64,000 bases of DNA from Bacteroidota bacterium (GCA_018266795.1 JAFDZV010000036.1:26971-90970), one strand, 5' to 3'; shown: positions 10,430 through 47,869, counted from the first letter of the stretch. Notes: generated from the letters alone by a model not told the origin. Translations and numbers: made by a program.

Positions 10430-10684
10430 GGGAGGGCGGGCGCCGCCGCCCGGGGCTGCTGCAGGGGAGAATGCAGACGATTGCATCGCGCGCCGCGACC
10501 ACCGTGCCGCGGCGCGCGACCAGAGGCGGGGCCGGCGCTGCAACCGTTGTGGTTGCCGCCGGCAGCGCATCGCTACCGTGAAGAACGCACCATCACCAAC
10601 AGCTTCCATCAACGACCGGCCATCTCCGGCTTCCCCGCGAGATCGCTGCGCTCGGCGGTGAAGGCTTCAAGCGCCGAGACCAGC

Positions 10685-15637: not shown

Positions 15638-15653
15638 ACAGAGGAAGACTGCC

Positions 15654-18600
15654 ATGAGCCTTCAAACCTTCTACAATTCGCTTGGTGGAGACACCCCGCC
15701 GAATCCGATTGTCTTTGAGCTGGATGAGGATACTGTCGATCCGATCCTGATGCTGCTTACGCTCCTCGAGGTGGATCGGCTGGAGGTCGACATCGTTGGT
15801 GAGGGTGAGCATGATCCGCCATTCGGCATGGTATATACCGCGGACGACCAACCCATGACGATTCGTGGGAGCGCCGAGATGTACGGTGTTGCAACGACCG
15901 TGCTTCTTGTGTTCGTTCAGGACGCCGAGACCGATGCAATCCAGGGAACCCTTACAGCAGCGCTTGATATTACTTCGATTCAGGCGCTCTCGGATTCCGG
16001 TATCGCCGTCATCGCCAACATGGCGGACATCGCTGCGATGCCCGAAGCCGGAGTAGTGCTGGAGGTACTGGGCAATCTTTCGTTGACCACGTCGACGGCC
16101 GATCGCACGTTCGTTGTTCAGTCCGGGATCAAGGACGGAACCACCCGTGTGTTCCAGTCGCCCGCGGTTTCATTTACCGGATTGAACGTACGGGTTGATC
16201 GCGTCATTGGCGATCCGGCCTCGGAAGATGGGCCTGGTGCTCCTGTCACGACGTTGAGTGTAAAGGGGGCGTTCACGGTCTGCGGCCAGGCGCTGGACGT
16301 GACGGTGGATATTCCCGTTGGGGGAGTGGGCTCCACAATGTGGCGCTTCGCATTCACCAGTCCAACCGGATTCGGTCTCGATTCGCTTGTGGATCTGCTC
16401 AATGCATTCGGTGTCGGCGGGCAATTCGCTGCACTTCCCGATCGCATCAGATTGCTCTCCGCATTCCGGTTCATGGGCTTCGAGGTGATCGCCGATCCCT
16501 TCCCGTCGATCGCAAGCATCGAGGTCCTCTTTGCGATCACCGGCGACTGGAACGTCGTAGACACCGTTACGCTGCACAATATTACGTGCTCGCTGCTGGT
16601 CCAGAATCCGTTCAACGGACCATCTGCGCTTCTGAGGGCGAGCGGTGTGTTTACCGTTGGCGGCATTGATCTGGGGACGACACTGCTTATCCCGATAGGT
16701 GGTGGTAACTGGCTCGTGCGGTGTACAACCGACAGCGACAGCATCAATCTGCTCACGATGTCGCAACTGCCGGGGCGCTTCGACCTGAGCTCGCTTCAGG
16801 CACCGATCGGCACACAACAGCAGCTCGATGTTGTTCTGAACGATCTTACGGTTGTCTTCAATCCCATTGCGCGCACAATTGGAGCGATCTCGATCGCAGT
16901 GCGATATGCGGCTACGTGGAATGCCCTTGTCTACAATGGCGAGACGGTACTGAGCGTAACCAATCCTCAGTTCGTGATCGCCATCGATTCACCTCTGTCG
17001 AATAATCGCCGCGTCACGGCAAGCATCTCAGGGTTCGTGGCCTTTTACGATCTGATCAATGCGAGTTTCGAGATGACCAGATCGGGAGGAAGGTGGGCGT
17101 TTGCCGCCGAGACCACCAAACCGATTCGTCTCCAGGCGATCTTCGACAAGTTTTTTCCAACGTATCCGGAGTGGCTGGACGCGATCAAGGGATTTTCAAT
17201 CACCCAGATCGTGTTCAATTATACGACGTCGGGCGGGAGCCAGCCCGGTGTCTTCAATCTGAGTGCCCGCATCGAGGCCAATTGGGATTATGCACTCGGC
17301 GGCCAGACCGGTTCCATTCAACTGACCTCCATCAGCGCATCGGTTGGATCGCAGCCCGATCCTGCTCAGCCTGCGCAGCGGATCTGGACGTTCGCCGTTG
17401 CCGGCACCGTGCGCCTGTACGACACGTTCAACCTGACAGGCTCGTTCCAGTATCGTACAGGCAATGGTCCCGGATCGGGTGCCGAGATCGCCGTCGAGTT
17501 CGATGGCGTGCGTGGTGTCTACAACTCCACCAACAAGCGCATCGACGTCTCACTCGGGAATCGCACCGTCGGCGATCTGGTAAATACGCTCAACCGATTG
17601 GTCAACGGTCCCGCCACGCCGGACTATCAGTTCGAGTCGCCATGGGATCTCGTTGCCGGCATCAGCCTGCAGGGGCTGGTATTCAGCTTCTACTTCGACG
17701 GCAACAGCCAGAAGCGCTGCGGTATCACCTATCGTTTCCCGACGCCCGTCGATCTCGGCTTCATGAAGATTGTCTCGGTCTCGGTGATTGTGACGACCAC
17801 CAAGAAGATTCGCTTCGAGGCCGACGTGATTCCGTTCACGGCAACAACGCCGTCGCCGTTCGGATGGAATCTCGATGATGCGAATGTCCCGAAGCCGCCG
17901 GGCCGCTCGGCACGCATCCTCGATCTCAAGTACCTCGGCATCGGCCAGCGGCTCGAGCTGATGTCGGCGAATGCCACCCGCTCCGTTGACGACGGGATCG
18001 CTGCGATGAAGACCGCGTTCGCGATCCCGTCGGCAACCAGCCATCCGCTTACAGGCATGCAGGCCGGCCTGCGCTACAACCCGCAGATGAACTGGCTTGT
18101 GGGGGCGGACTTCCAGTTGTTCGGGGCGTTGGCGATCGGCTTCATCTTCAACGACAGCAACATAGCCGGTGTGCGCGTTGGCGTGGATGGCGATCGCTTC
18201 CGCTATCTCGGCGGCCTGAAGTTCGAGATCCTCTACAAGAAGGTAACCGAGAGCATCGGCGTGTACCAGATGGAGATCCGCGTGCCGGATTCCATCCGCC
18301 AGATCGAGCTGGGGCAGGTTTCGATCACGCTTCCGATCATCGCCTTCGAACTCTACACGAACGGCAATTTCAAGGTGGACTTCGGATTTCCGAAGGACAA
18401 TGACTTCTCCCGTTCGTTCATGATTCAGGTGTTTCCATTCCTGGGAGCCGGTGGTTTCTACTTTGCGCTGCTGGAGGGGGCAACATCGCCGCGTCTGCCG
18501 GCCAACTACAATCCGAACACCGGTGTGTTCCGTCCCGTGTTGTCGTTCGGCATCGGGCTCAGTCTGGGAGTGGGCAAGAGCATCAACCGCGGCATCTTCT

Positions 18601-21600
18601 CGGCGCAGCTCAGCATCACATTCGAGGGAATTCTGGAAGGGGTGATCGGCTTCTTCAACCCGACGAGCGGGAGCGGAACCGAGATCTACTACTGGCTTCA
18701 GGGCACGCTCGGCGTGGTTGGCCGGATCCAGGGAAGCGTGAGCTTCGCCGTCATTTCCGCAAGCGTCTCGCTGGTTGTGTACGCGCGTATCGGGGCCACA
18801 TTCGAATCATACCAACCACTCGTGCTCTTCTTCGAGGCCGGTGTGGATGTGAACCTTACGGTGCGCATCGGCGTTGGCTGGCTGAGCACCGATGTCAGTT
18901 GCTCCTTCTCCACCAGCATCCGCGAGTCGTTCACGATCCCGGTGCGCGGCAATGGAACGGCGCCGTGGGTTGGCGGCGGCCAGCATGCGTTGGGCCACGG
19001 CGCCGGGCCGCACGGTATGATCGGATCGAGTGCGGTGGCGCCGAAGGAAATGGGGGTTCTCCGCTGGAGAACGATCGACATGGCCGGCACGGGCGACGAA
19101 GTTCTTCTGGAGTTCCGTCCGATGTATACCGTGGCGGAAGGGCCGAACGGCCAGAAGTCCAACTACGTGGCAATGCTGTTTCTGCGCAGTGCATCGCAAT
19201 CGGAACGCGAGAACGACCATCGGACTGTCAACGAGATTCAGGCAACGGACTTTGAGGCGCTTGCAACCGGCATGTTGGTGTGGGCGATCAATGCATCGGT
19301 GAATGCCAACAACCAGACTGCCGTCAATGCGGGCAACATCGAGACCGAACTCCTTAACAAGGACGTCCGGATTGATCACCTGCAGGAAGTGTTCGATTCT
19401 CTGGCACGCCGGGCAGGAGCGGCTGCGAGTTTCGAGACGCAGCAACTGCTGGATTTCCTCCACCTGTATTTCACGATGGTGATCGTCCCATTGCAGCAGA
19501 ACCGGCATTCACCGAATGGTGGCAGCTCCGATGACCGGCCCACGCTGGCAGTGTTCCCAATGCCGCCGGACCTGGAACTGAAGGCGTTCTACGATGACGC
19601 GACCGTGGCCGACATCGACTTCGCCTCCTACAACATGGTACCGGACAGCTATTCCGGCGAGATCGCCAACCACTTCAAGGAAATCGCCATGCAGTTCCAG
19701 ACAGGGCTGGAAGCGAGCGTTGACGCGAATGAAATGCAGGCTGCGCCGGAGTATACGGGCGACGAAGAGTCCATGGCATCCTATGTCTTCGACGACTATT
19801 TCATGCTCCTTGCGCGTGGGGTGGTACATGCGGCCATGGATCTGCTGAAGAATTATTCGATTAAATCTGCCGGGGAGACTCTTGCCGCCCTGGCGACCAC
19901 CTATGGGGTTTCCCCGGGTGAGGTGGGCGTTGCAAATGCGGATCTGGCGATCACCGCACCGGCCACACTGCAGCTTGGCGGTGTGGCGGTAACCACGACG
20001 GCTACCGATACGCTCGCGGCATTGGCCTCGGACAGGGGGTTCCCGAACGACAATGGTTTCCTGGAGAGCCTCGGTCGCCTGAATGCGCTCACACCCGGAC
20101 TCGTGGCAACGGACACGGCGATCACGATCGGCGACGACTCAATCGATGTTGCAGAAAACGAGACGTTGTACTCCATGGCGACGAGGCTCCATGCTTCACC
20201 GGGTGCGGTTGCCGTCACGATTGCATCGCGGCAGGTGCTCAATGCCGATACGAGGCTGCTTCTTCCAACGGTTCCAACCACGTATCTCACCGTTGGGAGC
20301 GAGCCCAATCTGCGCTGGATCGCGTCCAACTACGTTGCAACGCCGGACTTCCAGTTCGAGACGGACTTCGCGCTCGCGAACGCGTTCGTTCCGGGGATCT
20401 TCGTTCCGGGAACCATCTTCACGATGGCGACCGGAGATGCGTACCAATCCATCGCGTCCGACTCGCTTGCAACAATTGCGGCGGCGGTGGGCTTCACCGT
20501 GGAATCGGTGGCGGGAGCCAGCAACGAGCTTTCCGGCATCATCGCTCCCGGAGTTCGCCTTACCATCCCTCCGGTGTCGGTTGCGCTGGAGGGTGCGCCA
20601 ACGTTGCGCCAGGTGCAGACAACCTATGGAGCCGGCATCGCGGCAGTGGCTGCGGCCAACGCCGCAACCCTTGTGCTGGGTGCGGCGGGCGGTTGCATTG
20701 AGCTGCCGAATGTGAAGAAGATCAAGATCGGAACGCTGAGGAAGGAAATGCTGCAGCGCGATCTGTTGATCGATCTTGGCGGCACGGTCTCGCGATTCAT
20801 GGTGCCGGGCCTGCGGCTGCCGCTCCCGACGCAGCAGCAGAATCCCGAGCCCGGCCTGTGGCCGAACTGCGAACCGGATGGATTGTATCGCCTTACCGGC
20901 CAGCAATTCGAGTTGGACAACCCGCTCGGCGGGCAGAACGGACCCGATCTGGATGTTATGCTGGTTGGCGGAGCCAACGCAGGCTGGTATTCGATGCGCG
21001 GGGACGCGGAGAACTACGAGAACCCCGAGAACGACGAGGTGTATGAAAATCCTGTGCGTGTCACGCTCGAGTGGGCTGACCTCGACAAGCTCGATCAGCT
21101 TGCCGCAGAGCAATTGCTGGTTGACGCGTCGCCCTACCGGAAGATCCCGATGTCGCAGACGCAGTTGAAGCGCTTCCCGCTTGGGCGTCCCGTGCAGATT
21201 CAGATGTCCGGTGCGTTTGCCTATGCCGTTGGAACGGCTCCCAACGGCGTGTTGCCGACCATCCTCAACTTCTCCGAGGGAATGCGCCGCGTGCTGGCGG
21301 TGGCCAGGAATCCGGAGCAGCGTTTCGATCTCGCGCTGGAGCGGCCGGACGGATCCGCTGCGGCGCTGAACGTCTACTCCTGGGCTACGGCAATCACCGT
21401 GAAGGTGCGTCGCGTTCGCCTGCCCGATGGTTCCATTGCTGCAATGACCTACGAGCTGGACGGTGCCGACGCCGAGGGGACGCTGACGCTGGAGAAGATC
21501 GTTGCCAGGGGAGGAACGTCCGGCTTCGGGTTCATTCAGGATATACATCTTCTCTTTGCCGGCCAGGGAGTTGGAGCGTTGCAGACCGACGGGCCGAATG

Positions 21601-24600
21601 CAATCAGTGCCTTCATCCTGCAAACCAATCTCTCCACGCTCACCAACCCGCAGGGGTCGAAGAGCATGGTGGCGGCGAAGGACGTACCGGCTGCGGTCGC
21701 AAATGATTTCAAGGACAACCGTGCCGAGATTCTGCGAGTACTGTGGGAGGGAAGTATCGTTCGCTCCGGCGGATACTATCTCTACTATCGGTGCGGTGGT
21801 GCATCGCGAGGGCTGCCGGACAGCGCGTTCAAGGATGACGGTACGGCGGACATCACGCTGTTGATCACCTATGGCTACGGGGCCGGCAATTATGCCTCCA
21901 GCGGGCTGCCGTCGTTCGTGAACCGGGTGGTAGTGGGGGCGGATGTTACCGTGGCTTCCGTGTTCGCAGTCTCGCACGAGCAGTCGATATCGGTAGCGGT
22001 GAACGGCACCACGACGCTCAGCCAGCTGATGGCCTCGTATCACACAAACCTTGCGGATCTGGCCGTGGACCTTGGCGGACAGGGGCTGAGCGTGGAGTCG
22101 ATTCCCGTTCCCGGTGCAGTGTACCAGGTGGCGCACGGCGGCGAGACGCTGGGCGCGGTTGCCAACCGATTCCATCTTGGCATCGATGCCATCAAAAGCG
22201 CGAACACGGATCTCGATGCGGGCCTCACCGCCGACAGCGAGTTGACCGAGTACCTGACCCTCGTGATCCCGCCGTTCACGCATCCGGTAGCTGCCGGGCA
22301 GAACCTTGCAGGCATTGCCGGCACATACAATGTGCCATTGACCGATCTCGTTGCTCCGCTTGCCGGCTCTGCAATCTTCGCTGCCGGACCGAATGTGAAC
22401 ATCCGCAGTCGCCTGGTAACGAAGTCGCCCACGGTGCCGCCGGGACACACCGGATTCCAGCTGTTCCGCGTGCCTCAGGAGACTCCGACAGTGCATGATG
22501 AGCCCACAGCCGCACAACAGTTGGAATCGCTCTACAGCCTGCTTGCATACTGGCTGGTGCAGAACCAGTGGTGCGATGGAAGCATGGAGGGACTGCCGCG
22601 CGGACCGGGGGAGGAACTGGCGGAGTTCACGGATCTTCCGGACGTGGAGGATCGGTGGAAGTACGAACAGGTACTGCCTGCGTACCGGTTTGTTCACAGC
22701 GCACTCCCGGCCGCCAACCCATATCGAGGGGTGGGTACGCTCGTGGAGATCGGCGTGGATTGGCGCGACGTGTTCGGCAATCTCCTGAACTACGTCTTCG
22801 AGGTTGATGGATGTTGGGGATCGAACGTTCTGCCGATCCGCCTGGGCTACACCGACGAAGTAATCGGAATCGGGCGTTGGCCGTCTGTGCGGTCATCCTA
22901 CAGCATGGGCTTCGATGCGAACTCGAATCCGACGAACGACATCGTACTGGAGTTCGATGTTGCGCGCTACCTGGTTACCCCGGAGGGTGAGCAGGCAAGT
23001 CTGGGGGATGTGTACAATATTGCCGGCGCCGACTACGAAGCATACACGCGCATCGCAAATCAGCTTGCCTGTGCCGATGTCACAGCCTGGGGAAGCACCA
23101 CGCTGGGCGGCCCGTCGCAGCCGCTCAGTATTGCCGCAATCCGTGCCTGGGTGGGAAGCATCGTAAGCTTCCTGGATCAGCTGTTCGCGGTGCTTATCGA
23201 CCCGGATGCGCCGCAGCCGCAGATCCCGGACGATCTCACGCTTCCGATCCCTGCCTCGCTTACAAACAACGAGGCGATCTTCCCGTTGATCGTTCGTTTC
23301 GGCATCGAGCGTACCGGGCGTATCGACGATGCATTCCTCGACATGCCCGCCGTGCGCGAGGCTACCGAGGACATCGAACCCGCCGGGCCGATCAAGGACT
23401 TCGCCGCGAACTTCGAGTGCGTCTATGGGGGGGCGAAGCTGGCCGCGGGCCTCTCGCGTCTGGAGGATACGGAGACCGATTCACGCAATCGGCTCTGGGT
23501 GGTGAAGCTGGGGCAGCTCAACGGCAATAATCGCGACCAGGGCCCATCGAATCCGAACAAACGGTTCCAGTATGCCGTCGACGATCAGCAGCAGGTGTTC
23601 TTCGCACCGATTCCGCTTGCTACGTCACCCATCGGATCGGAAGATCTGAACGTCTACAACTACGTTTCCGGACAGGGGCTGGCCGATGCAGTCACCAGGA
23701 AAACCTACAAGGGGGTTGATCTCGATGCCTGGGCCCGGACGTTCCTGAATGCGGTGGACACGATTCTGCTTCCTCAGTATGCAACTCCGGCACATCTGCT
23801 CGATCTTGGAAGCGCTGCTCCGGCGGGCTCGCGCGCGCTCGAGAAGATTATCGCTGCGAAGCGAATGATTGCCGGCGCCATCACGGGAATGGTGCAGGAG
23901 ATTGGAGACACAGGACGGGGAAACCTGGGCGAGGCCAGCGAGTTCTTCAGTCAGCGACTGCTGGTTCGATTGTCGGCAGCGTATGAAACCGATGCGATCG
24001 TTCAGCTGGGAGTAAACGTGGACTCGCCGTATGCCGATGCGGATACCACGTACGTACCGAAGCTGTATGGGCAGACAGTGGGACGGCGGCCGGGAACGGA
24101 GGAGTCGAAGCCGGAGTTCACGCTCTCCACGGCACGTGTTCCACTGGCACGCGAGAGTCAGTACCTGACATTCCTTTTCAGTGCGGAGACGGCGCTGCCC
24201 GAACAGATGTTCGAGGTGGATGTAGAATTCAACGTCAGCGCATTGGAATACCAGATTGCCGACGTGCCGGGCATTACCGATTATCGCGCGTCATCGTGGC
24301 TCACATTCATCATTCCACCCGACTCGCCAACCGTGCGGGCTGCTGTTCCGGTACCGATCCGGAAGTTCCCGCCCACGCCGACGTTGATCGAGCAGGAATT
24401 GATCACCACGGTTGACGCCACCGATGATGAGGAGGAATACAATGCGCTTACGCTTGCCGAGACGCGTGAATGGCAGTATGCATATACATACGAGCGGGTG
24501 CAGGGGACGCACGATGTAATCTTCACCTCCCCTCGATTCAATGTGGCCAACAGCGAACTGCCTCACGGCATCGGTGCGGAGGATCCCGATCTGTTCCAGG

Positions 24601-25769
24601 CGCTGGCGATGTTCGATCACGCCTGGGATGCCATCCAGCAGGATCTGTTCGATCCGTTGGTCAAGATCAGGCAGGGCGTTGCCGGTGCCGACGACGGCAA
24701 GGCCGATGCCGCTCTCACAGCGTTTGCCGCAATTGCATCCAAGGTTGCATGCGCATGGGGACGCTGGTTGTGCGATCGCGATTTCTACCGGCCGTCGTAC
24801 GGGACGGAAGATCCATACCTGTACGTGGTAAGCGAGGATGATCGCGACATCCTAGTCGAGGCGCAGGTGGTGCGGCGGTTCACGATAGCCGTCAGAGTCT
24901 GCCGCGGCCAGGCGGACGTTCCTCTACCGCGTATAGATGTCGATGGTTGGGAAACCCACCCGGTGGACAACGTATTGCCGGGATGGCGGATATTCTGGTA
25001 TTCAGCAGTAGGAGAGAACGGAACGGAGATCCTGGACAAGGATACTGCTGCGGAGGACCGCCAGCGAACGGTGGTATTCGAAACACTGGATATCCTGAAC
25101 AAGCAGAATGCATGGGGAGGGGTGTACACAACCCGGAACGAGAACATCTTCAACGATGCCGCCTGTAATCCGACTGCTTCCATTCATACGAATCGGGAGT
25201 TCATCTATCGTACTCCGATGGTTCGCTTCGGAAATCTGCTGACCCCACTCATCGAATATGACGGGACGATCGATGTCGGGAGTCTGAGTCCCGCGGAGCC
25301 GAGCCCGAAGGGAATCGGGAGCCACATCGGCACGTTGTTCACGAAGTTCTTCGAAGGGATTCAGAATCCGGCGCCGAACGAGACCCGAAGCATTCGCGTG
25401 GATTGCAGGTATGAGTATCGTCTGGGGAATCCCTATGGGATCGTGAGTCCGATGATCGTTACGCTGCCGATTGCTATGTCGCCGCCGTTCGATTTCCGGA
25501 TACATGCGGACGAGGACGCGACATGCCCGCAGCAGGCTGCCACTTTCACCTGTGCGCTTGCCGATGCGATCACCGCCTGGTACTACGCGCGGTTGCCCGA
25601 GCGGGATCAGGGGCGGTTCATTTTCGACATCGCAGTCTATTCAAGCCTGGGGAATACAGGCAAGCTGCCGATCTACCACGTGAAGTCCTTGCGGTTGAAT
25701 CTGAGCGACGTGAACGATCTGACCGAGGATGATTGCGACGACGACGGTGGCGACGGCACGGGAGGATGA
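15654..25769 (+). CDS. Giant protein, paralog B (3,371 aa); two LysM-like repeat arrays; family not recognised
   Basis: ATG at 15654 (MSLQTFYNSLGGD...) is preceded by GAGGAAG and lies 16 nt after the MBL stop. The ORF is uninterrupted to 25769. It is collinear with paralog A, with islands of high identity such as FEILYKKVTESIGVYQ..., NAWGGVY..RN.N.F...AACN....HTN..F.YRTPMVRFG.LLTPLIEYD, and VFDI.VYSSL....KLP.Y. No signal peptide and no T9SS-type C-terminal domain; the protein ends DDCDDDGGDGTGG. Confidence 0.85.
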   Translation: MSLQTFYNSLGGDTPPNPIVFELDEDTVDPILMLLTLLEVDRLEVDIVGEGEHDPPFGMVYTADDQPMTIRGSAEMYGVATTVLLVFVQDAETDAIQGTLTAALDITSIQALSDSGIAVIANMADIAAMPEAGVVLEVLGNLSLTTSTADRTFVVQSGIKDGTTRVFQSPAVSFTGLNVRVDRVIGDPASEDGPGAPVTTLSVKGAFTVCGQALDVTVDIPVGGVGSTMWRFAFTSPTGFGLDSLVDLLNAFGVGGQFAALPDRIRLLSAFRFMGFEVIADPFPSIASIEVLFAITGDWNVVDTVTLHNITCSLLVQNPFNGPSALLRASGVFTVGGIDLGTTLLIPIGGGNWLVRCTTDSDSINLLTMSQLPGRFDLSSLQAPIGTQQQLDVVLNDLTVVFNPIARTIGAISIAVRYAATWNALVYNGETVLSVTNPQFVIAIDSPLSNNRRVTASISGFVAFYDLINASFEMTRSGGRWAFAAETTKPIRLQAIFDKFFPTYPEWLDAIKGFSITQIVFNYTTSGGSQPGVFNLSARIEANWDYALGGQTGSIQLTSISASVGSQPDPAQPAQRIWTFAVAGTVRLYDTFNLTGSFQYRTGNGPGSGAEIAVEFDGVRGVYNSTNKRIDVSLGNRTVGDLVNTLNRLVNGPATPDYQFESPWDLVAGISLQGLVFSFYFDGNSQKRCGITYRFPTPVDLGFMKIVSVSVIVTTTKKIRFEADVIPFTATTPSPFGWNLDDANVPKPPGRSARILDLKYLGIGQRLELMSANATRSVDDGIAAMKTAFAIPSATSHPLTGMQAGLRYNPQMNWLVGADFQLFGALAIGFIFNDSNIAGVRVGVDGDRFRYLGGLKFEILYKKVTESIGVYQMEIRVPDSIRQIELGQVSITLPIIAFELYTNGNFKVDFGFPKDNDFSRSFMIQVFPFLGAGGFYFALLEGATSPRLPANYNPNTGVFRPVLSFGIGLSLGVGKSINRGIFSAQLSITFEGILEGVIGFFNPTSGSGTEIYYWLQGTLGVVGRIQGSVSFAVISASVSLVVYARIGATFESYQPLVLFFEAGVDVNLTVRIGVGWLSTDVSCSFSTSIRESFTIPVRGNGTAPWVGGGQHALGHGAGPHGMIGSSAVAPKEMGVLRWRTIDMAGTGDEVLLEFRPMYTVAEGPNGQKSNYVAMLFLRSASQSERENDHRTVNEIQATDFEALATGMLVWAINASVNANNQTAVNAGNIETELLNKDVRIDHLQEVFDSLARRAGAAASFETQQLLDFLHLYFTMVIVPLQQNRHSPNGGSSDDRPTLAVFPMPPDLELKAFYDDATVADIDFASYNMVPDSYSGEIANHFKEIAMQFQTGLEASVDANEMQAAPEYTGDEESMASYVFDDYFMLLARGVVHAAMDLLKNYSIKSAGETLAALATTYGVSPGEVGVANADLAITAPATLQLGGVAVTTTATDTLAALASDRGFPNDNGFLESLGRLNALTPGLVATDTAITIGDDSIDVAENETLYSMATRLHASPGAVAVTIASRQVLNADTRLLLPTVPTTYLTVGSEPNLRWIASNYVATPDFQFETDFALANAFVPGIFVPGTIFTMATGDAYQSIASDSLATIAAAVGFTVESVAGASNELSGIIAPGVRLTIPPVSVALEGAPTLRQVQTTYGAGIAAVAAANAATLVLGAAGGCIELPNVKKIKIGTLRKEMLQRDLLIDLGGTVSRFMVPGLRLPLPTQQQNPEPGLWPNCEPDGLYRLTGQQFELDNPLGGQNGPDLDVMLVGGANAGWYSMRGDAENYENPENDEVYENPVRVTLEWADLDKLDQLAAEQLLVDASPYRKIPMSQTQLKRFPLGRPVQIQMSGAFAYAVGTAPNGVLPTILNFSEGMRRVLAVARNPEQRFDLALERPDGSAAALNVYSWATAITVKVRRVRLPDGSIAAMTYELDGADAEGTLTLEKIVARGGTSGFGFIQDIHLLFAGQGVGALQTDGPNAISAFILQTNLSTLTNPQGSKSMVAAKDVPAAVANDFKDNRAEILRVLWEGSIVRSGGYYLYYRCGGASRGLPDSAFKDDGTADITLLITYGYGAGNYASSGLPSFVNRVVVGADVTVASVFAVSHEQSISVAVNGTTTLSQLMASYHTNLADLAVDLGGQGLSVESIPVPGAVYQVAHGGETLGAVANRFHLGIDAIKSANTDLDAGLTADSELTEYLTLVIPPFTHPVAAGQNLAGIAGTYNVPLTDLVAPLAGSAIFAAGPNVNIRSRLVTKSPTVPPGHTGFQLFRVPQETPTVHDEPTAAQQLESLYSLLAYWLVQNQWCDGSMEGLPRGPGEELAEFTDLPDVEDRWKYEQVLPAYRFVHSALPAANPYRGVGTLVEIGVDWRDVFGNLLNYVFEVDGCWGSNVLPIRLGYTDEVIGIGRWPSVRSSYSMGFDANSNPTNDIVLEFDVARYLVTPEGEQASLGDVYNIAGADYEAYTRIANQLACADVTAWGSTTLGGPSQPLSIAAIRAWVGSIVSFLDQLFAVLIDPDAPQPQIPDDLTLPIPASLTNNEAIFPLIVRFGIERTGRIDDAFLDMPAVREATEDIEPAGPIKDFAANFECVYGGAKLAAGLSRLEDTETDSRNRLWVVKLGQLNGNNRDQGPSNPNKRFQYAVDDQQQVFFAPIPLATSPIGSEDLNVYNYVSGQGLADAVTRKTYKGVDLDAWARTFLNAVDTILLPQYATPAHLLDLGSAAPAGSRALEKIIAAKRMIAGAITGMVQEIGDTGRGNLGEASEFFSQRLLVRLSAAYETDAIVQLGVNVDSPYADADTTYVPKLYGQTVGRRPGTEESKPEFTLSTARVPLARESQYLTFLFSAETALPEQMFEVDVEFNVSALEYQIADVPGITDYRASSWLTFIIPPDSPTVRAAVPVPIRKFPPTPTLIEQELITTVDATDDEEEYNALTLAETREWQYAYTYERVQGTHDVIFTSPRFNVANSELPHGIGAEDPDLFQALAMFDHAWDAIQQDLFDPLVKIRQGVAGADDGKADAALTAFAAIASKVACAWGRWLCDRDFYRPSYGTEDPYLYVVSEDDRDILVEAQVVRRFTIAVRVCRGQADVPLPRIDVDGWETHPVDNVLPGWRIFWYSAVGENGTEILDKDTAAEDRQRTVVFETLDILNKQNAWGGVYTTRNENIFNDAACNPTASIHTNREFIYRTPMVRFGNLLTPLIEYDGTIDVGSLSPAEPSPKGIGSHIGTLFTKFFEGIQNPAPNETRSIRVDCRYEYRLGNPYGIVSPMIVTLPIAMSPPFDFRIHADEDATCPQQAATFTCALADAITAWYYARLPERDQGRFIFDIAVYSSLGNTGKLPIYHVKSLRLNLSDVNDLTEDDCDDDGGDGTGG
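19851..20718 (+). other. LysM-like repeat array 1 of paralog B (positional equivalent of 3114-4005)
   Basis: Segments include NYSIKSAGETLAALATTYGVSPGEVGVANADLAI, TTTATDTLAALASDRGF..., DVAENETLYSMATRLHASPGAVAVTIASRQVLNADTRLLLP, TMATGDAYQSIASDSLATIAAAVGFTVESVAGASNELSGIIAPGVRLTIPP and LEGAPTLRQVQTTYGAGIAAVAAANAA. Assigned by eye. Confidence 0.45.
21969..22430 (+). other. Paralog-B-specific insertion carrying about 3 more LysM-like repeats
   Basis: B reads ...VVVGADVTVASVFA[VSHEQSI...154 aa...RLVTKSP]TVPPGHTGFQLFR. A reads ...VIIGDAIDPTWGIVATVQPNNAAYAASQVKVLMIPPGHAGFQLYR. The insert contains YQVAHGGETLGAVANRFHLGIDAIKSANTDL and HPVAAGQNLAGIAGTYNVPLTDLVAPLAG. Confidence 0.5.
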
Positions 25770-39774: not shown

Positions 39775-40906
39775 ATGTACGAGAACATTGAGGATAGACT
39801 GAACGACCAGCGCGTGAAGATCACCGACCTGCGGAGGTATCTTTGACATCGAACGCAAGGAACGTGATATAGCGGAGATGGAGGCGCGTTCGCAGGAGCC
39901 GGGCTTCTGGGACGACAACGTAGCCGCGCAGAAGGTGATGCGCGAGATTGCGACGCGCAAGGAGTGGGTGGAGCAGTGGAAGGCCGCCAGCCAGGCCGCC
40001 GACGATATCGGTGCGTTGATCGAGCTTGGGCGGGAGGCGGAGGATGACTCCATGGCCGGCGAGATGGAGACGGAGCTCTCCAGGCTCGGCGGGATGGTGG
40101 AGGGCCTGGAGTTCCGCAACATGCTCTCCGATCCGGATGACGTACGCGACGCCATCCTGAAGGTGCAGGCGGGAGCCGGAGGAACGGAGGCGCAGGACTG
40201 GGCGCAGATGCTGCTCCGGATGTACATGCGCTGGGCGGAGCGGAAGGGCTACAACATTGCGCTGCTCGATGAGCAGGAGGGAGATCAGGCCGGTCTGAAG
40301 TCCGCCTCCATCGAGATCAGCGGCCCGTATGCGTTCGGCAATCTCAAGTCGGAGAACGGCGTTCACCGTCTGGTGCGCATATCGCCCTACGATGCCGCCG
40401 CGCGCCGGCATACATCGTTCGCCTCGATCTTCGTGTATCCGGTTGTGGACGATGACGTTGCCGTGGAGATCAATCCTGCCGACGTCACGCTGGAGACGTT
40501 TCGCTCCGGCGGCAAGGGCGGGCAGAACGTGAACAAGGTGGAAACGGCCGTGCGCCTTCGGTACGACTACACCAGCCCGCGCGGCGATAAGCATCAGATC
40601 ATCGTGAGCTGCCAGGAGGAGCGCTCGCAGCTCCAGAACCGCGAACGCGCGATGAAGATGCTGAAGTCCGAAGTGTACGAGATCCTGCGGCGCGAGGAGG
40701 AGGAGCGGAAGGCCGCGATCGAGGGTGCGAAGAAGAAGATCGAATGGGGAAGCCAGGTGCGCAACTACGTGTTCCAGCCGTACACGCTCGTGAAGGATAC
40801 GCGCACCGGTGAGGAGACCGGTGACGTACAGGCGGTGATGAACGGCGAGATCGATCCGTTCATCAAGGCGTATCTGATGGAGTATGCAACGCCGCCCGGG
40901 GATTGA
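39775..40906 (+). CDS. prfB: Peptide chain release factor 2, expressed via programmed +1 frameshift
   Basis: Frame 0 reads ATG 39775 MYENIEDRLNDQRVKITDLRRYL, then TGA at 39844. The +1 frame from 39845 continues DIERKERDIAEMEARSQEPGFWDD...SGGKGGQNVNKVETAVRL (GGQ motif) to 40906. Confidence 0.95.
39833..39847 (+). promoter_or_regulatory. prfB: RF2 autoregulatory +1 frameshift site (internal SD-like GGAGG, then TAT CTT TGA C)
   Basis: The sequence GGAGGTATCTTTGAC has the same spacing and slippery CUU-UGA-C context as E. coli AGGGGGUAUCUUUGAC. Confidence 0.9.
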
Positions 40907-41927: not shown

Positions 41928-42078
41928 GCGTGCATGTGTGAATACTGAATCGATACCGGCCGCCATCGCGGTTGCGTGAACGAAGATACGACCTCCGCGG
42001 CCTTTGCGTCCCTCGGTGCCCATTCTCCGGCGATGGAAGGAGTCTGGCAATACACGACTTCCGTATCTTGGCCGGCCT

Positions 42079-42735
42079 ATGAGCACAGCGGACTACTATC
42101 TCGAGAAGGATGCATCCTACTATGCACTGGTGCGCTACGATGTGATCGGAATGATTCCGCGCGGCGTTCGCCGGATGCTGGACATCGGTTGCAGCAACGG
42201 CGCAACCTCCGCGGTGGCCAAGGAGCAGTTGGGGATCGAGGAGACGGTGGGAGTGGAGCCGTTCGCTTCCAGTGCGGCGCTGGCGGCCGGGCACATGGAT
42301 CGTGTGATCAACGCGGACATCGAGGTGCTGGAGGATCTGGGCTTTCCGGAGGGATACTTCGACTGCATCATCTGCGCCGATGTGCTGGAGCATCTGCGCG
42401 ATCCCTGGGCCGTACTCCGATTCCTTCGCAGGTATCTGAGCGACGACGGATGTCTCATCGCCAGCATCCCGAACATCCAGCACATCGTTCCGCTGCTGAA
42501 GATGGCGCGCAACCGGTTCGAGTACGAGGAGCACGGCATCCTGGATAGGACTCATCTCCGGTTCTTCACGCTTCACACGATGATCCGCATGTTCAACGAT
42601 AGCGGGTTTGCGGTGGAGATGGTGGAATCGAATCGCAGCAACAGCCTGCCCTACAGGCTCGCCACCATCGCATCCCTCGGCCTCTTCCGCCCGTTCACCG
42701 TCTTTCAGTACCGCCTCCGCTGCCGCAAGGCGTAG
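42079..42735 (+). CDS. Class I SAM-dependent methyltransferase (218 aa)
   Basis: Motif I MLDIGCSNG, post-I VGVEP, and FDCIICADVLEHLRDPWAVLRFLRRYLSDDGCLIASIPN (Methyltransf_11/23-like). Confidence 0.8.
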   Translation: MSTADYYLEKDASYYALVRYDVIGMIPRGVRRMLDIGCSNGATSAVAKEQLGIEETVGVEPFASSAALAAGHMDRVINADIEVLEDLGFPEGYFDCIICADVLEHLRDPWAVLRFLRRYLSDDGCLIASIPNIQHIVPLLKMARNRFEYEEHGILDRTHLRFFTLHTMIRMFNDSGFAVEMVESNRSNSLPYRLATIASLGLFRPFTVFQYRLRCRKA

Positions 42736-42804: not shown

Positions 42805-43479
42805 TCAACGTTCGCGCCACTCGATCCCTTCGCGCATTGTCGCGCCGGGCTGGCCTCCGATTACGGCATTCGGCGTGGAGAGCGCCCGTGAAATCAACGA
42901 ACCAGCCGCCACTACGCAGCCGTCCGGAATTACCGCCCCTTTCAGTATCAGACTCCTGCAGCCGACCCAGACATGTTCTCCGATCACGACGGGAGTGTCG
43001 GGGTTCAGAAGGGCGCCGTTCGCGTCGTGAATCGGATGGAAGTCCGTATCCATTATCTGAATGTCCCACGACAGGAGCGAGCCGGCTCCGATCGTAATCG
43101 CGCAGTGACTGATGATCGCGGTCTCGGCGGTAACGTTCACGTCGCTGCCCACGGTGAGCACCGCGCCGGTGTGAACGGAGAGCTTCGTGCCGTGCCCCAT
43201 CCCGCAGCGTCCCTTGAACACCACGCTTCCGCCCACATCCCAGATGGAGCGCGAGCGATGTTGGTCGAAGATGCTTACCTGCCCGAAGCCCAGATGAATC
43301 ATGCGCGGCCGCACCGGCCCTTCGATCGCAACGGACCCCTTCATCCGAAACAGCCAGACGCGATGCGATACGATGATCGGGAACCTCAGCGCGTCGCGAA
43401 GCGGCAGATACCGGAGATTGAAGATGATGGTCTTCGGGAGAGCGAGGAGGAAGAGGATAACGGAGCGAAGCGTCTGCAT
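42805..43479 (-). CDS. Hexapeptide-repeat (left-handed beta-helix) acyl/acetyltransferase (224 aa)
   Basis: An N-terminal hydrophobic helix is followed by LbH-type repeats: VGGSVVFKGRCGMGHGTKLSVHTGAVLTVGSDVNVTAETAIISHCAITIGAGSLLSWDIQIMDTDFHPI...VIGEHVWVGCRSLILKGAVIPDGCVVAAGSLI. This resembles WcaF/colanic-acid-type O-acetyltransferases. Confidence 0.8.
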   Translation of the reverse strand: MQTLRSVILFLLALPKTIIFNLRYLPLRDALRFPIIVSHRVWLFRMKGSVAIEGPVRPRMIHLGFGQVSIFDQHRSRSIWDVGGSVVFKGRCGMGHGTKLSVHTGAVLTVGSDVNVTAETAIISHCAITIGAGSLLSWDIQIMDTDFHPIHDANGALLNPDTPVVIGEHVWVGCRSLILKGAVIPDGCVVAAGSLISRALSTPNAVIGGQPGATMREGIEWRER

Positions 43480-43615: not shown

Positions 43616-45130
43616 CTACGACCTCTGCCCCCTGCGCGTGCCGAAGATACGACCGATCGAGCGACGGAGCACGCTCAGCAGAAGCGCGAGGAGCGATTGT
43701 CCCGATTGCGAGGACCGCATGCCCAGCATCATGTGCAGGTCGTGGATGTCGGTTCGCGACAACCGGCTGGTAGCGGAGTCGATGGCGGTGGAGGCGGAGA
43801 GCACGTCCTTCAGAAGCTCGTTCAGGCGGTTTGCCATCTCCTGCAACTGGCGCATCTGCGACTCGGACCCGCCGGACTTCAACAGCATCTGTACATGCTC
43901 GTACAGCAGGGCCGCCTCGCGCAGGGCATCCGCGTCTATCCCCTCCTGAAAATCCTCCTCGACCTCTGCCAGCAGTTCGCGGATCTCCTCGATCTCGCTC
44001 TCGCGAAGCGTGAAGATCGCATCGGAGGAGATGTCGTTCACGTTGACGAAGACGGAGGAGAGCTCCTCGATCTCGCGCCCGTAGCTCCGCTTCAGTTTGT
44101 CCGTGATGGCGGATCGCACCTGCTCCACGCGGCGAGCCAGCGAGACGGCCTTGTCCGAGGATGTCTTGCTGACCTGCGCGCGCGTGATGCGCAACTCCTC
44201 CTCCAGCTGTACAAGGTTGCGCTGCTCCGCGCTGGAGCCGCGGCGCGCGAGGTCGTGCAGCAGCTTGTCGTCAGGGATGATCGTGGCGTTGCCGATCTTG
44301 ATCGTGTTGATTCGGATCGTGTCACCGAGCGCGGAGCGGATCTTCTCCACATCCAGATGGCAGGCGCCGTCGGTCACCATCAGGATCTCCGCGCCGGAGA
44401 GCGTGGACTGCGCCCGGATGTCGTCAGCGGCCTGAAGAATCGCGCGCTCCATCACCGTGCCGTTTCCCAGTCTGCTCAGGCGCATGACGTAGCGAATAAG
44501 GCTCCACAGCCCGCTGCTGTCGGTTGCGGTCTGCAGCGGCCCCAGATCGGTATCGAACGTCCGGAGATAGATGTGCCCCAGCTCGCGCAGGTTGCGCTTC
44601 AGAAAGACGTAGGTCACTGCCTTGGCCATCTGAAAGCGATGGTGCGATGTCATCGAGGTGGAGGTATCCAGCAGGAGATAGACCTTCTGCTTGAAGTTGT
44701 TCGGGGAGTAGTCCGAACCGGAGGAACCGAAGGGGATGATAACCGGCGTGCGCGGCACGTTGATCCAGAGCGAGCGCGTGGCCAGGCGATGCATGAACAC
44801 TTCGTCCGGCAGCAGATACTGATGCGGAAAGATCCGCTTGATGTCGCTGATGTTCTGCATCAGTGCGGCCTCGTACTCCTCGCCGTGCGTCACGTTCCGA
44901 TTGGGCACCCATTCGCGCGATGCAGGCTCGCGCTTCGGCTCCACGATCGCGGAGACCGTCATTACCGATTCGATGGATCGGAAGAGCGGCGAGTCCGGAT
45001 CCTCCAGGACACGGGCAATCTCGAAGACCGCCGTGAAGTCCTCGGGAAGAAGTTCATCGAGCCCGCGGAGGTAGCCGAATTCCTCCATGTGCTCGAAGAA
45101 GGAGCTATGCGTGAGAACCGCATGGCGCAT
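43616..45130 (-). CDS. von Willebrand factor A (VWA) domain protein with a long C-terminal coiled-coil (504 aa)
   Basis: MIDAS motif VYLLLDTSTSMT, with later NGT and MVTDG elements. The C-terminal 190 aa or so are Glu/Leu/Arg-rich and helical, ending in the hydrophobic SLLALLLSVL. Its ATG overlaps the stop of the upstream AAA+ gene (TGATG). Confidence 0.8.
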   Translation of the reverse strand: MRHAVLTHSSFFEHMEEFGYLRGLDELLPEDFTAVFEIARVLEDPDSPLFRSIESVMTVSAIVEPKREPASREWVPNRNVTHGEEYEAALMQNISDIKRIFPHQYLLPDEVFMHRLATRSLWINVPRTPVIIPFGSSGSDYSPNNFKQKVYLLLDTSTSMTSHHRFQMAKAVTYVFLKRNLRELGHIYLRTFDTDLGPLQTATDSSGLWSLIRYVMRLSRLGNGTVMERAILQAADDIRAQSTLSGAEILMVTDGACHLDVEKIRSALGDTIRINTIKIGNATIIPDDKLLHDLARRGSSAEQRNLVQLEEELRITRAQVSKTSSDKAVSLARRVEQVRSAITDKLKRSYGREIEELSSVFVNVNDISSDAIFTLRESEIEEIRELLAEVEEDFQEGIDADALREAALLYEHVQMLLKSGGSESQMRQLQEMANRLNELLKDVLSASTAIDSATSRLSRTDIHDLHMMLGMRSSQSGQSLLALLLSVLRRSIGRIFGTRRGQRS

Positions 45131-46455
45131 CAGTGAAGCGGCGTCTCGATGCTGTTGCGAACGTTGAAGATCACGTGTGCGTCGTACTGGAGCTTGGATC
45201 GAAGCTCCCGCACCTCGTCCGTTGCCGGCTGGAATCGTTCAAGGTACTCGGTAACCAGGCGTCGGTTGTTCTCCACGGCCACATCCGCCATGCCGAACGC
45301 CTCGCGGGCCCACTCGCGCAGCGTCCGTTTGATCGGCATGTTCTCGATGTTCGTGATCGGCTGGCTGAGCAGGTCGGGCTGTGCCTTCAACTGATCCAGC
45401 AGCGCCTTGAAATCGAGCAGCGTCTTCAACTGCTCCATCGCCTGGCTTGCGAGGAACTGATGCTGAAGGGTCTGCGTGGCCTTGGTCCAGGCGGCGCGTT
45501 CGTCGTCCAGCCCGACCGTGGTGAAGAGTACGTAGAGCTTGTCCACGTCGCTCTGCGTTACCGTTGTTCGCCCATGCATGAAGGCGATTGCGCGGAGCAG
45601 ATCGAACGCCTTCACCTGCTTGCGCGGGGAGATGTAGTAGTCGCGCTGATGAGCGGCCGGAGAGCCCTGCGCCAGGCTTCGGTTGCGCAGTTCCTCGTAG
45701 TATCGTATTACGATATTGGTATAGTACGCGATCTCGTTCGGCACGGTGATCTGCATGATCGGGCTCGTGCCCTGGCAGATCCGGGTTACCTCCAGGAGAG
45801 TGGCGAACGAAATCCGTTTCGGAGGGACCACGGGCTGGCCGCCGTGCATCAGATACTGCTGCGAGATGCGGTACTGATGATAGGGGTCCTTGTCCGGGAA
45901 CACAACGGACTGGTAGGTGAAGCGGTCCAGCAGCGCCTCGGTGATCTCGCTGATGCGCAGATAGTTGGTTGCGGCGATCACGGTATGGATGGCCGCGCGC
46001 TGCCGCTGAATGCCGAGGATCAACTCGCGTTCGTTCAGGAGCGAGAGGAGGGCGCGGAGCGTGAAGTCGTTGGCATCGAAGATCTCGTCGATGAATCCGA
46101 ACTCGCTTTCAACGAGCGACCCCTCCGTATTGTGAACGATCTTCCCCACCTTCAGCTCCTCCACGTTGAGGCCGCCGAAGTAGGTGTCCGGCTGCTGCTC
46201 CTTCGAGGCCTGCACCTTGAAGTAGCGCGCGTCGGTGAACATGAGGAACACCTGTTCGGTCAGCAGCGACTTGCCGACGCCCGTACGGCTCTGAATCAGC
46301 GCGTGCTCGCCCGTCAGCAGGGCGCAGAAGAGCTGTTCGATCACGTCGGTGCGATTGATGACGCGGCGGTTGACGAAGTCGATGGCGTCCTGGAGGTCGA
46401 GGATAACCTGCTGGGAGTTGAATGCAGTGCTGGCAGCTTCTGTCACGGAGCGCAC
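45130..46455 (-). CDS. RavA/MoxR-like AAA+ ATPase (441 aa)
   Basis: Walker A IQSRTGVGKSLL, Walker B GFIDEIFDAN, then the sensor region LRALLSLLNERELI...VIAATN...ALLDRF. GTG start at 46455. It is coupled to the downstream VWA gene, the classic MoxR/RavA-VWA(ViaA) arrangement. Confidence 0.8.
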   Translation of the reverse strand: MRSVTEAASTAFNSQQVILDLQDAIDFVNRRVINRTDVIEQLFCALLTGEHALIQSRTGVGKSLLTEQVFLMFTDARYFKVQASKEQQPDTYFGGLNVEELKVGKIVHNTEGSLVESEFGFIDEIFDANDFTLRALLSLLNERELILGIQRQRAAIHTVIAATNYLRISEITEALLDRFTYQSVVFPDKDPYHQYRISQQYLMHGGQPVVPPKRISFATLLEVTRICQGTSPIMQITVPNEIAYYTNIVIRYYEELRNRSLAQGSPAAHQRDYYISPRKQVKAFDLLRAIAFMHGRTTVTQSDVDKLYVLFTTVGLDDERAAWTKATQTLQHQFLASQAMEQLKTLLDFKALLDQLKAQPDLLSQPITNIENMPIKRTLREWAREAFGMADVAVENNRRLVTEYLERFQPATDEVRELRSKLQYDAHVIFNVRNSIETPLH

Positions 46456-46612
46456 TCTCCTTGGTTGGCGGAACCGGTATGAAGGATCTGCCGATCCGGC
46501 GGCCGGGGGTGCGAAGGCCCTGCCGGGTCAACGGGCGAATATACGTTTCAAACCACGCAACACATCATCGTTTCCATCACCGGATCTATATTCGCCGGCG
46601 CTCGGATCTCTC

Positions 46613-47497
46613 ATGAATATCTACTTCGCCTACGGGCTTACCCTCGCCTCGGAACTCGAGCTTCCCTCCCTCGCACGCGGGGAGGGGCGCGCGGACATTG
46701 CCGTGCGCCTCGGCGTACCTGCGGAACGCCCGCCGTCGGAGATCGGCATCCATGGCTACTACGCGCTGGGGCCGGCAGTGGCCCACTACGTGTGGCGGGG
46801 TGTCGGCTGCTTTGCGGTCAGGGATGGCAGTGAGATCGTCGCGGAGCTGGAGCCGGGCGCGGACGATGCCTCGGTGGCCAACCTGATTACCGGCTCGCTT
46901 CTCGCCATCGCAATGCATCAGCGCGGTCTTCTCGTGCTGCACGGATGCGGTGTCGAAATCGGCGGCCATGTGGTCGGCTTCGTTGCCGATACGGGAGGGG
47001 GGAAGTCCACCACGGCCGCAGCGTTCGTACGCGCCGGGTATCCGATGGTGACGGACGATCTGCTCGTGATCGAGCCGGGGCCTAACGGCACCCTTCCGGT
47101 TGTTCGTTCCGGGCCTGCCCGGATGAAGCTATGGCCGGATACGCTTCGCACGTTCGGGCATGAGCCGGGAAGTCTGCCGAAGGTGGTAGGCCCGCGCGAC
47201 AAACGGTTGATCGATGCAGATCTGCATACGGGCGCCGCGTGGTTGCCGCTGGCTGCGATTCACGAGCTCGCGTGGGGGGAGGAAACCCGGATCGAACCGC
47301 TTGCGCCGCAGGAGGCGCTCCTTGCGCTGGTTCGCAACTCCTACTGCGTAAAGCTTCTGGACCGTATGGGGAACCAGGGAGCGTTCCTGCAGTTGTGTGC
47401 TCTTCTGGCATCGCAGGTGCCGGTGCGGCGGCTGGTGCGGGTTCGCGATCTGGATCGGCTGGAGGAGTTGGTGGAAAATATGAGATATGAAATATGA
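46613..47497 (+). CDS. HPr kinase/phosphorylase C-terminal-domain-like (HprK-related) kinase (294 aa)
   Basis: LVLHGCGVEIGGHVVGFVADTGGGKSTTAAAFVRAGY resembles the HprK P-loop region (hHG..v...G.GVLi.G.SG.GKS..A). ATG at 46613 (MNIYFAYGL). It is divergent from the AAA+/VWA pair. Confidence 0.65.
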   Translation: MNIYFAYGLTLASELELPSLARGEGRADIAVRLGVPAERPPSEIGIHGYYALGPAVAHYVWRGVGCFAVRDGSEIVAELEPGADDASVANLITGSLLAIAMHQRGLLVLHGCGVEIGGHVVGFVADTGGGKSTTAAAFVRAGYPMVTDDLLVIEPGPNGTLPVVRSGPARMKLWPDTLRTFGHEPGSLPKVVGPRDKRLIDADLHTGAAWLPLAAIHELAWGEETRIEPLAPQEALLALVRNSYCVKLLDRMGNQGAFLQLCALLASQVPVRRLVRVRDLDRLEELVENMRYEI

Positions 47498-47540
47498 AGG
47501 TGTCCGCTCAGTGACCCGACGGGTTCGGGGAATCAGATAT

Positions 47541-47830
47541 TGTCACTCTGACGAGTGAAACGAGGAGGAAGACCGTCGCACGCCGCGCACGCGACTCGGG
47601 GTGACAAGACGTGGTTGAGAGTCGACATGGTCATGATGAGTGTGCCACTGCTGGTATGGTCATCCTGACGACGAGCGAAGCGAGGAGGAAGGATCCTGGC
47701 GTAGACAGGTGGTGATTGACAACGCAGCCTGCACCGCCACGGTTAAATCAGTATGGAATCTGTCTGATCTTGCCCCGAAAGCGTGGACACCCTTCGCCGC
47801 GTGCTACGCACGCGGCGAAGGGTGACAAAG
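47541..47830. repeat. Cluster of GTCAYYCTGAC...GAGGAGGAAG...GGTGACAA dispersed-repeat copies plus a 13-bp perfect hairpin
   Basis: Copy 1 is 47541-47607 (TGTCACTCTGACGAGTGAAACGAGGAGGAAGACC...CGGGGTGACAA). Copy 2 starts at 47659 (GTCATCCTGACGACGAGCGAAGCGAGGAGGAAGGATCC) and ends ...GAAGGGTGACAAAG at 47817-47830. The hairpin CCTTCGCCGCGTG-CTACG-CACGCGGCGAAGG is at 47791-47821. A related copy lies at 53761-53794. Confidence 0.7.
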
Positions 47831-47869
47831 AGGGTTATGATGAGATATGATCATCCTCTCTTCCATGTC

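Follow-up and report, generated by a model that had tools for sequence, protein, structure and literature searches.

A lineage-specific MoxR-VWA gene pair of Kapabacteria and Ignavibacteria, and an orphan lasso-type kinase gene beside it in one sub-clade

Gene pairs in which a MoxR-class AAA+ ATPase is coupled to a protein with a von Willebrand factor A (VWA) domain are abundant, and clients are known for only a handful of them. One such pair, next to a divergently transcribed gene for an HprK-like serine kinase, lies in a stretch of 64,000 nucleotides from a Candidatus Kapabacteria metagenome-assembled genome (MAG), the whole of which is called the window here. The mode of action of MoxR-VWA pairs, with remodelling by an ATPase ring and capture at the metal ion-dependent adhesion site (MIDAS) of the VWA protein, has been summarised in PMC7159879. 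In RavA-ViaA of E. coli, a pair linked to respiratory complexes, the C-terminal helix of ViaA binds anionic lipids and places ViaA at the inner membrane (PMC9489729). The MoxR-vWA-beta-propeller ternary systems described by Kaur, Burroughs, Iyer and Aravind in 2020, which are found in Bacteroidota among other phyla, are defined by a vWA protein that bears a beta-propeller and by a third, TPR/beta-propeller component with a variable N-terminus (PMC7159879). The window pair shares features with these systems but belongs neither with RavA and ViaA nor with the ternary systems, and forms an uncharacterised, lineage-specific MoxR-VWA subfamily. It is fairly likely to be a chaperone pair of the Kapabacteria and Ignavibacteria that works in the manner of RavA-ViaA, the kinase being a separate gene that was gained in one sub-clade.

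RavA stands closest to the ATPase by both sequence and fold. It was the sole match in the Protein Data Bank found by sequence (E 6e-22), and it headed the Foldseek matches to the ATPase model, followed by a Cytophaga MoxR protein. The model has a RavA-like core and lid, and the Pfam matches, all above the gathering thresholds, were bpMoxR (PF20030, 96.5 bits), AAA_5 and AAA_lid_8, the last being a lid common to RavA and the window ATPase. Together with these MoxR-type matches, the hallmarks of the MoxR clade of AAA+ proteins are in place: Walker A K62/S63, Walker B D123/E124, the sensor-1 residue N164 and the arginine finger R178 are invariant in the 18 sequences compared. Its sequence shows a RavA-like ATPase whose catalytic residues are all in place. 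Some members of the family carry an ‘AAKS’ variant of the P-loop. The classification by hidden Markov model (HMM) that the initial annotation had called for gave RavA as the nearest subfamily, but the score against the NCBIfam RavA equivalog NF010054 was 68.1 bits, far below its cutoff of 681. The alignment to that model is limited to model positions 20-321 of 498, and the C-terminal ~130 residues of the ATPase are exclusively helical in the structural model. Since this C-terminal domain (residues 301-434) is all-helical, the LARA domain is absent from the ATPase. LARA, the domain by which RavA is defined, binds LdcI and phosphatidylglycerol. The ATPase family collapses to a single representative at 50% clustering. 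The next relatives outside it, at 280-360 bits, come from uncultivated lineages, including two candidate-phyla-radiation MAGs, and these nearest outgroups gave no functional lead.

As in RavA-ViaA, the genes make up a two-gene operon with the ATPase first and the VWA protein after it. The overlap of ATPase stop and VWA start (TGATG) given in the initial annotation can be read directly in the minus strand at the junction, cttcacTGATGcgccat (junction core cacTGATGcgc), where a single base is shared, the last of the ATPase stop codon being the first of the VWA ATG. The deposited annotation of an identical VWA protein starts 14 codons later and gives 490 aa; the overlapping start, which gives 504 aa, is favoured here because residues that precede the deposited methionine, among them an ‘FF’ pair, are kept in distant homologues. 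The VWA protein matches the Pfam families VWA_2, VWA and VWA_3, and its full-length homologues (36-78% identity) are all of ~500 aa and of uniform architecture. A conserved N-terminal helical motif, LPEDFTAVFEIARVLED, is followed by a disordered linker, the VWA domain with its MIDAS, a helical hairpin inserted in that domain, a helical bundle that is acidic and a tail that is basic and amphipathic. AlphaFold, in a model with pLDDT 79 and pTM 0.74, places the VWA domain at residues 148-364, with 140 further residues after it, and matches to solved structures are confined to the VWA core. The MIDAS, read by the initial annotation as an intact DTSTSM motif, is indeed complete, since the full set D155, S157, S159, T225 and D254 is invariant in 25 homologues.

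The region beyond the MIDAS differs in part from its first description as a long acidic coiled-coil C-terminus ending in a hydrophobic tail. It is helical, as proposed, but two of the helices (residues 301-319 and 325-349) form the hairpin inside the VWA fold, whose last beta-strand (360-364) comes after them; the bundle helices span residues 377-449, and acidic character is limited to residues 377-470. The tail is a basic amphipathic helix rather than a hydrophobic one, with a net charge of +7 over the last 34 residues, and no transmembrane segment. A charge of +4 to +11 over the final 30 residues and a hydrophobic moment of 0.40-0.88 are seen in every one of the 25 aligned homologues, and the tails (last 28 residues) of the VWA open reading frames (ORFs) from all the related loci look the same. 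ViaA likewise ends in an arginine-rich amphipathic helix. The ViaA-type tail is a sequence property of all 25 aligned homologues, and lipid binding by it is putative, by analogy with ViaA. In other respects the VWA protein departs from ViaA. The NCBIfam ViaA model NF008230 did not match it, and matched only one of the 25 homologues (E 9e-4); its VWA domain is in the middle of the protein with ~140 residues after it, while that of ViaA is at the C-terminal end. The two systems also differ in range, which is Kapabacteria and Ignavibacteria here and Gammaproteobacteria for RavA-ViaA.

NorQ-NorD, CbbQ-CbbO and CoxD-CoxE, which are maturation factors for metalloenzymes, share with the window pair the combination of an AAA+ ring and a MIDAS-bearing VWA adaptor. 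The VWA domain of NorD is among the fold matches of the window VWA protein, and 17 of the 25 VWA homologues weakly match VWA_CoxE. However, none of 80 related loci has a nor, cbb or cox enzyme gene adjoining the pair, and the window ATPase is RavA-like rather than of the CbbQ/NorQ type.

The distribution of the pair was followed in one genome per species. Relatives of the ATPase were found in 198 species genomes, and the 80 loci that were fetched (L001-L080), with their ORFs clustered, all come from Kapabacteria/Ignavibacteria-type MAGs. Of these loci, 49 have a VWA homologue near the ATPase gene; in 48 it is downstream, and in 38 it is the next gene downstream and shares the strand. With the overlap in the window, this is the genomic coupling to a MIDAS-bearing partner that is expected of the MoxR clade. 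Among the 38 directly adjacent pairs, 25 overlap or are at most 10 nt apart and 11 have gaps of more than 60 nt, these spacings being those between ORFs taken naively at their greatest length, which is plainly too long for a few of them. In some of the other loci the two genes are split by one to three unrelated genes. In nine Ignavibacteria-type loci (L019, L034, L039, L044, L053, L063, L074, L075 and L079) a membrane metallophosphoesterase of ~400 aa lies between them, sometimes with further small genes, and an IS200-like transposase is present in L075 and L079. Because the metallophosphoesterase or other genes are inserted in some loci, the pair is not always a tight operon.

The ATPase-VWA pair is, on sequence comparison, vertically inherited and diverges at housekeeping rates, since its identities track those of the housekeeping neighbours. 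In L004 the identities to the window are 78% for the ATPase, 73% for the VWA protein, 80% for MnmA and 89% for PrfB; in L012 they are 68%, 62%, 78% and 81%, respectively. No further gene accompanies the pair consistently across the 80 loci, where the neighbours include genes for UvrC, UDP-glucose dehydrogenase, RpoN and dihydroorotate dehydrogenase, the atp operon and others. An origin of the pair from a mobile element was considered and rejected, as plasmid relatives reach at most 31% identity and no phage match was found. The initial annotation had held that its reading would be refuted if orthologues of the kinase never occurred with the pair and the pair belonged to a housekeeping MoxR subfamily of known function. 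Only half of this applies, since the pair does behave like a housekeeping one but lies outside the MoxR subfamilies of known function.

If the pair acts as characterised MoxR-VWA pairs do, the ATPase would form a hexameric ring and use ATP to remodel a client protein, and a peptide of that client would be held by the MIDAS of the VWA protein. If the basic amphipathic helix at its C-terminus behaves like that of ViaA, the VWA protein may be tethered to the cytoplasmic membrane on its inner face, and the whole complex with it. Because of this presumed tether, the client is probably a membrane-associated complex. The two genes would usually be co-transcribed and often translationally coupled. The kinase would have no part in this module; one Kapabacteria sub-clade would have acquired it, at a site between mnmA and the ATPase gene. 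Several points weigh against this picture. The client, the oligomeric state, the contact between ATPase and VWA protein and the binding to the membrane are all taken from RavA-ViaA or other MoxR pairs by analogy. The 10 kb around the ATPase gene yielded no VWA homologue in 31 of the 80 loci. The adjacency of kinase and ATPase is stable within the sub-clade, in seven genome loci and at least four metagenome contigs, and the search for lasso-peptide genes in the source genome covered the 64 kb of the window only.

The kinase is, to all appearances of its sequence, a catalytically intact orphan of the lasso-peptide HprK-like family. Lasso homologues of HPr kinase, such as the paeninodin kinase, phosphorylate the C-terminal serine of the linear precursor (PMC8498205). 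The window kinase aligns end to end with kinases from lasso clusters at 33-39% identity, for example with that of L083 at 38.7% over residues 3-292 (E 3e-48). The P-loop GKST, the DD pair and conserved histidine and arginine residues are present, as in the lasso precursor kinases; H102, R104, H110, GKST 130-133 and D148 are invariant, and D149 nearly so. Its scores against the family models are low, with 38.7 bits against a cutoff of 200 for TIGR04352 (HprK-related kinase A), 16 bits against a cutoff of 240 for TIGR00679 (HPr kinase/phosphorylase) and a value below the cutoff for TIGR04355 as well, and the identical deposited protein has no precomputed Pfam match. All the domain calls of the initial annotation are borne out: the AAA+ protein is MoxR/RavA-like, the VWA protein coupled tightly to it bears a MIDAS, and the kinase is HprK-related and of the sort found in lasso loci.

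Outside the sub-clade the kinase family occurs in Mesorhizobium, cyanobacteria and others. All three distant homologues whose context was fetched (P0198, P0142 and P0129) lie inside lasso-peptide clusters, two of which have the full layout of precursor, PqqD, Transglut_core3, Asn_synthase, kinase, ABC transporter and NTP_transf_5 genes; the third, from Acaryochloris, is without the PqqD, Transglut_core3 and Asn_synthase genes. The window kinase differs from these in having no gene for a precursor, B1/B2, cyclase, exporter or nucleotidyltransferase near it. When three sets of lasso proteins were used in tblastn searches of the window and L001-L080, the kinase alone was matched. No gene for PqqD, Transglut_core3, an Asn-synthase-like protein or NTP_transf_5, and no ORF with a leader motif, was present in the 64-kb window or in 5-21 kb around seven relatives. 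The leader-motif scan recovered the true precursors in the control loci L081-L083 and found nothing relevant near the kinase. It is because no lasso gene, precursor or leader-motif ORF was found nearby that the kinase is termed an orphan here, and the window is, as first stated, one in which no lasso context is visible, nor does the kinase lie in a lasso cluster. The spacer downstream of the kinase had been singled out as a place where a precursor peptide might be encoded; a precursor there was rejected after all ORFs of at least 20 aa had been listed and the leader-motif scan near the kinase had proved negative.

Two further measurements set the kinase gene apart from the pair. Its product has changed far more quickly than those of the neighbouring genes, being 87% identical in the closest relative, L001, where the neighbouring proteins are 96-98% identical, and 42-53% identical where the ATPase is 76-84% identical. 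The GC content at first and third codon positions (GC1 and GC3) also differs: it is 0.73 and 0.74 in the kinase gene, where the nine other genes that were measured range over 0.59-0.65 and 0.76-0.85.

The initial annotation treated the three genes as a trio, and one way to read the locus is that they are a functional unit in the sub-clade, with the kinase acting through serine phosphorylation as a regulator of the MoxR-VWA machine or of its client and with a promoter region shared between the divergent genes. Adjacency and divergent orientation are kept in L001-L006, L046 and further metagenome contigs, and the catalytic residues of the kinase are intact, but these seven loci, in which the ATPase is at least 76% identical to that of the window, are the only ones of the 80 in which the kinase adjoins the ATPase. 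In the other 73 it does not, and these include the next-closest relatives (L007-L010 and L012), where mnmA lies directly beside the ATPase gene. Synteny in the sub-clade extends over everything from PrfB to the aminotransferase, and for that reason adjacency there says little. The sequence between the ATPase and kinase genes is 157 to 318 nt long and does not align, the three distant kinase homologues with context are enzymes of lasso clusters, and a C-terminal serine on the VWA protein, the type of target known for such kinases, is found in only two of the seven kinase-bearing loci. The trio is a product of local synteny and no system, and a functional unit of the three genes is distinctly unlikely. 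A related idea is that the kinase, having lost its peptide cluster, has been re-used in the sub-clade as a regulator, with a serine of the MoxR-VWA chaperone tethered at the membrane, or of that chaperone's client, as the site that it phosphorylates. Such recruitment would be the first link between an HprK-like kinase of the type found with RiPPs (ribosomally synthesised and post-translationally modified peptides) and an AAA+ chaperone, but it must be considered very unlikely. The window VWA protein does end in serine, and the specific proposal that the kinase acts on this residue was rejected on the count of two in seven, in which the window is included. The kinase could instead be a working tailoring enzyme of a lasso pathway that is split between sites in the genome, its precursor, cyclase, protease and exporter genes being placed elsewhere and the ATPase-VWA pair unrelated to it. 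Full-length homology to lasso-cluster kinases, conserved catalytic residues and retention across several species all suit such an enzyme; nevertheless, the kinase is embedded within the cluster in each of the three clusters examined, and the searches of the window and of the 5-21 kb around seven relatives yielded no lasso gene or leader-motif ORF, so that a split pathway is unlikely.

A role as thresholding switches in conflict systems, which the initial annotation mentioned for MoxR-VWA couples in general, would make the pair a conflict or defence module akin to the ternary systems. The best Pfam match of the ATPase, bpMoxR, is the model of those systems, the MoxR and vWA core pair is common to both, and the ‘AAKS’ variant recalls their GXXXTAKS motif (PMC7159879). 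PF20030 is, however, a marker of the broad RavA-like clade rather than of the ternary systems, because it is matched by all ten of the distant RavA-like relatives sampled, at 80-131 bits. The window VWA protein has no propeller match in Pfam and is helical throughout after the VWA domain in the model, so the beta-propeller of the ternary systems is missing; so too are their third component and its variable region, with no TPR/beta-propeller gene within ~10 kb in the window and no conserved third cluster in the 80 loci. No effector of variable type was seen, and none of the ATPase, VWA and kinase proteins had a match in PADLOC-DB 2.0 at E <= 0.01. Uniform architecture, divergence at housekeeping rates, a syntenic context and vertical inheritance set the pair further apart from the ternary systems, as does the lack of close plasmid or phage relatives. 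A role in conflict is scarcely credible. Another possible specialisation is in the assembly of the F-type ATP synthase membrane sector, or of another respiratory complex, to which the pair would be dedicated as an assembly factor. An atpZ-I-B-E-F operon, encoding the Fo sector, lies at most 10 kb from the ATPase gene in 15 of the 80 loci (L014, L020, L029, L034, L040, L044, L053, L060, L062, L063, L069, L071, L074, L075 and L079), in two orientations, being either immediately downstream and on the same strand or upstream and divergent. The tail of the VWA protein suggests membrane association, and RavA-ViaA has its own link to respiratory complexes (PMC9489729). Against this, there is no atp gene in the 64-kb window, a single inversion among related genomes could explain the two arrangements, and the neighbours in the other 65 loci are unrelated. 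The proximity could be plain synteny or a hint to the client, and is a weak lead; a dedicated ATP synthase factor is improbable, and somewhat more so than a functional trio. The lineage-specific chaperone pair with a separate kinase remains the favoured reading.

As an observation the finding holds up, and what it means is ordinary. A defined subfamily with a distinctive VWA-partner architecture and a ViaA-like tail provides a comparative set for RavA-like machines outside the enterobacteria. A Pfam ‘bpMoxR’ match should not be counted as evidence for a conflict system. For the mining of genomes for RiPPs, that matches to the kinase can occur without a cluster is a minor curiosity.

Table. Positions of the ATPase, VWA and kinase genes, of elements within the VWA protein and of the flanking intergenic regions, counted from the first nucleotide of the window
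Feature	Position	Strand	Remarks
VWA partner protein gene	43616..45130	-	504 aa
Basic amphipathic C-terminal helix, residues 479-504, putative membrane-targeting tail	43619..43696	-	analogy to the ViaA C-terminal helix
Acidic helical C-terminal region, residues 377-470	43721..44002	-	net charge -13; modelled bundle helices 377-449
Helical hairpin, residues 301-349, inserted in VWA fold	44084..44230	-	AlphaFold helices 301-319 and 325-349, then strand 360-364
MIDAS DxSxS motif (D155-T-S157-T-S159)	44654..44668	-	invariant in 25 homologues
TGATG stop/start overlap of ATPase and VWA genes	45128..45132	-	read directly from sequence
MoxR-class AAA+ ATPase gene	45130..46455	-	441 aa from GTG start; 438 aa as deposited
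ATPase-kinase divergent intergenic region	46456..46612	.	157 nt, ATPase GTG to kinase ATG
HprK-like serine kinase gene, lasso-peptide kinase family	46613..47497	+	294 aa, orphan
Kinase-mnmA convergent intergenic region	47498..47869	.	372 nt, no precursor-like ORF

The distance between the divergent ATPase and kinase genes agrees with that first reported. The same spacing is found only in L001 among the relatives compared; in L002-L006 the gap is 229-318 nt, and beyond L001 the intergenic sequence cannot be aligned. A shared regulatory region for the two genes was rejected for this reason, and because scans for promoters and terminators gave nothing above chance. The spacer on the other side of the kinase contains local direct repeats, a perfect 17-bp hairpin at 47788-47824 and two copies of a ~35-nt motif, TAT.GTCA..CTGACGA...GAGGAGGAAG. 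This spacer is not conserved in L001, the closest relative (98% identical). A structured RNA or repeat element there was considered and rejected, there being no conservation in L001, no Rfam family at the gathering threshold anywhere in the 64-kb window, and only a meaningless match to a microRNA (E 0.004).

Beyond the three genes, the window has SusC/SusD-like genes, prfB, a methyltransferase gene and a hexapeptide acetyltransferase gene on one side, and mnmA, a penicillin-acylase-like gene and an aminotransferase gene on the other. The methyltransferase and the acetyltransferase were named from Pfam/NCBIfam, the other neighbours from their ORF translations. The methyltransferase gene (42004-42735, plus strand) and the acetyltransferase gene (42805-43479, minus strand) lie between the VWA gene and prfB, and their presence varies in close relatives. 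The methyltransferase matches PADLOC ‘mad2’ (6e-11), probably through a generic S-adenosylmethionine-dependent methyltransferase domain only. The prfB ORF, for release factor 2, is on the plus strand at 39878-40906 and starts at 39878, giving 342 aa; a leader with a programmed +1 frameshift is usual upstream in prfB. Three very large ORFs, all on the plus strand, lie at 9-8741, 10481-14260 and 15555-25769 (2910, 1259 and 3404 aa). They have no Pfam match at 1e-5 except for a LysM-like stretch in the largest, their GC3 of 0.71-0.78 is of the coding type, and they may encode giant surface or secreted proteins of unknown family.

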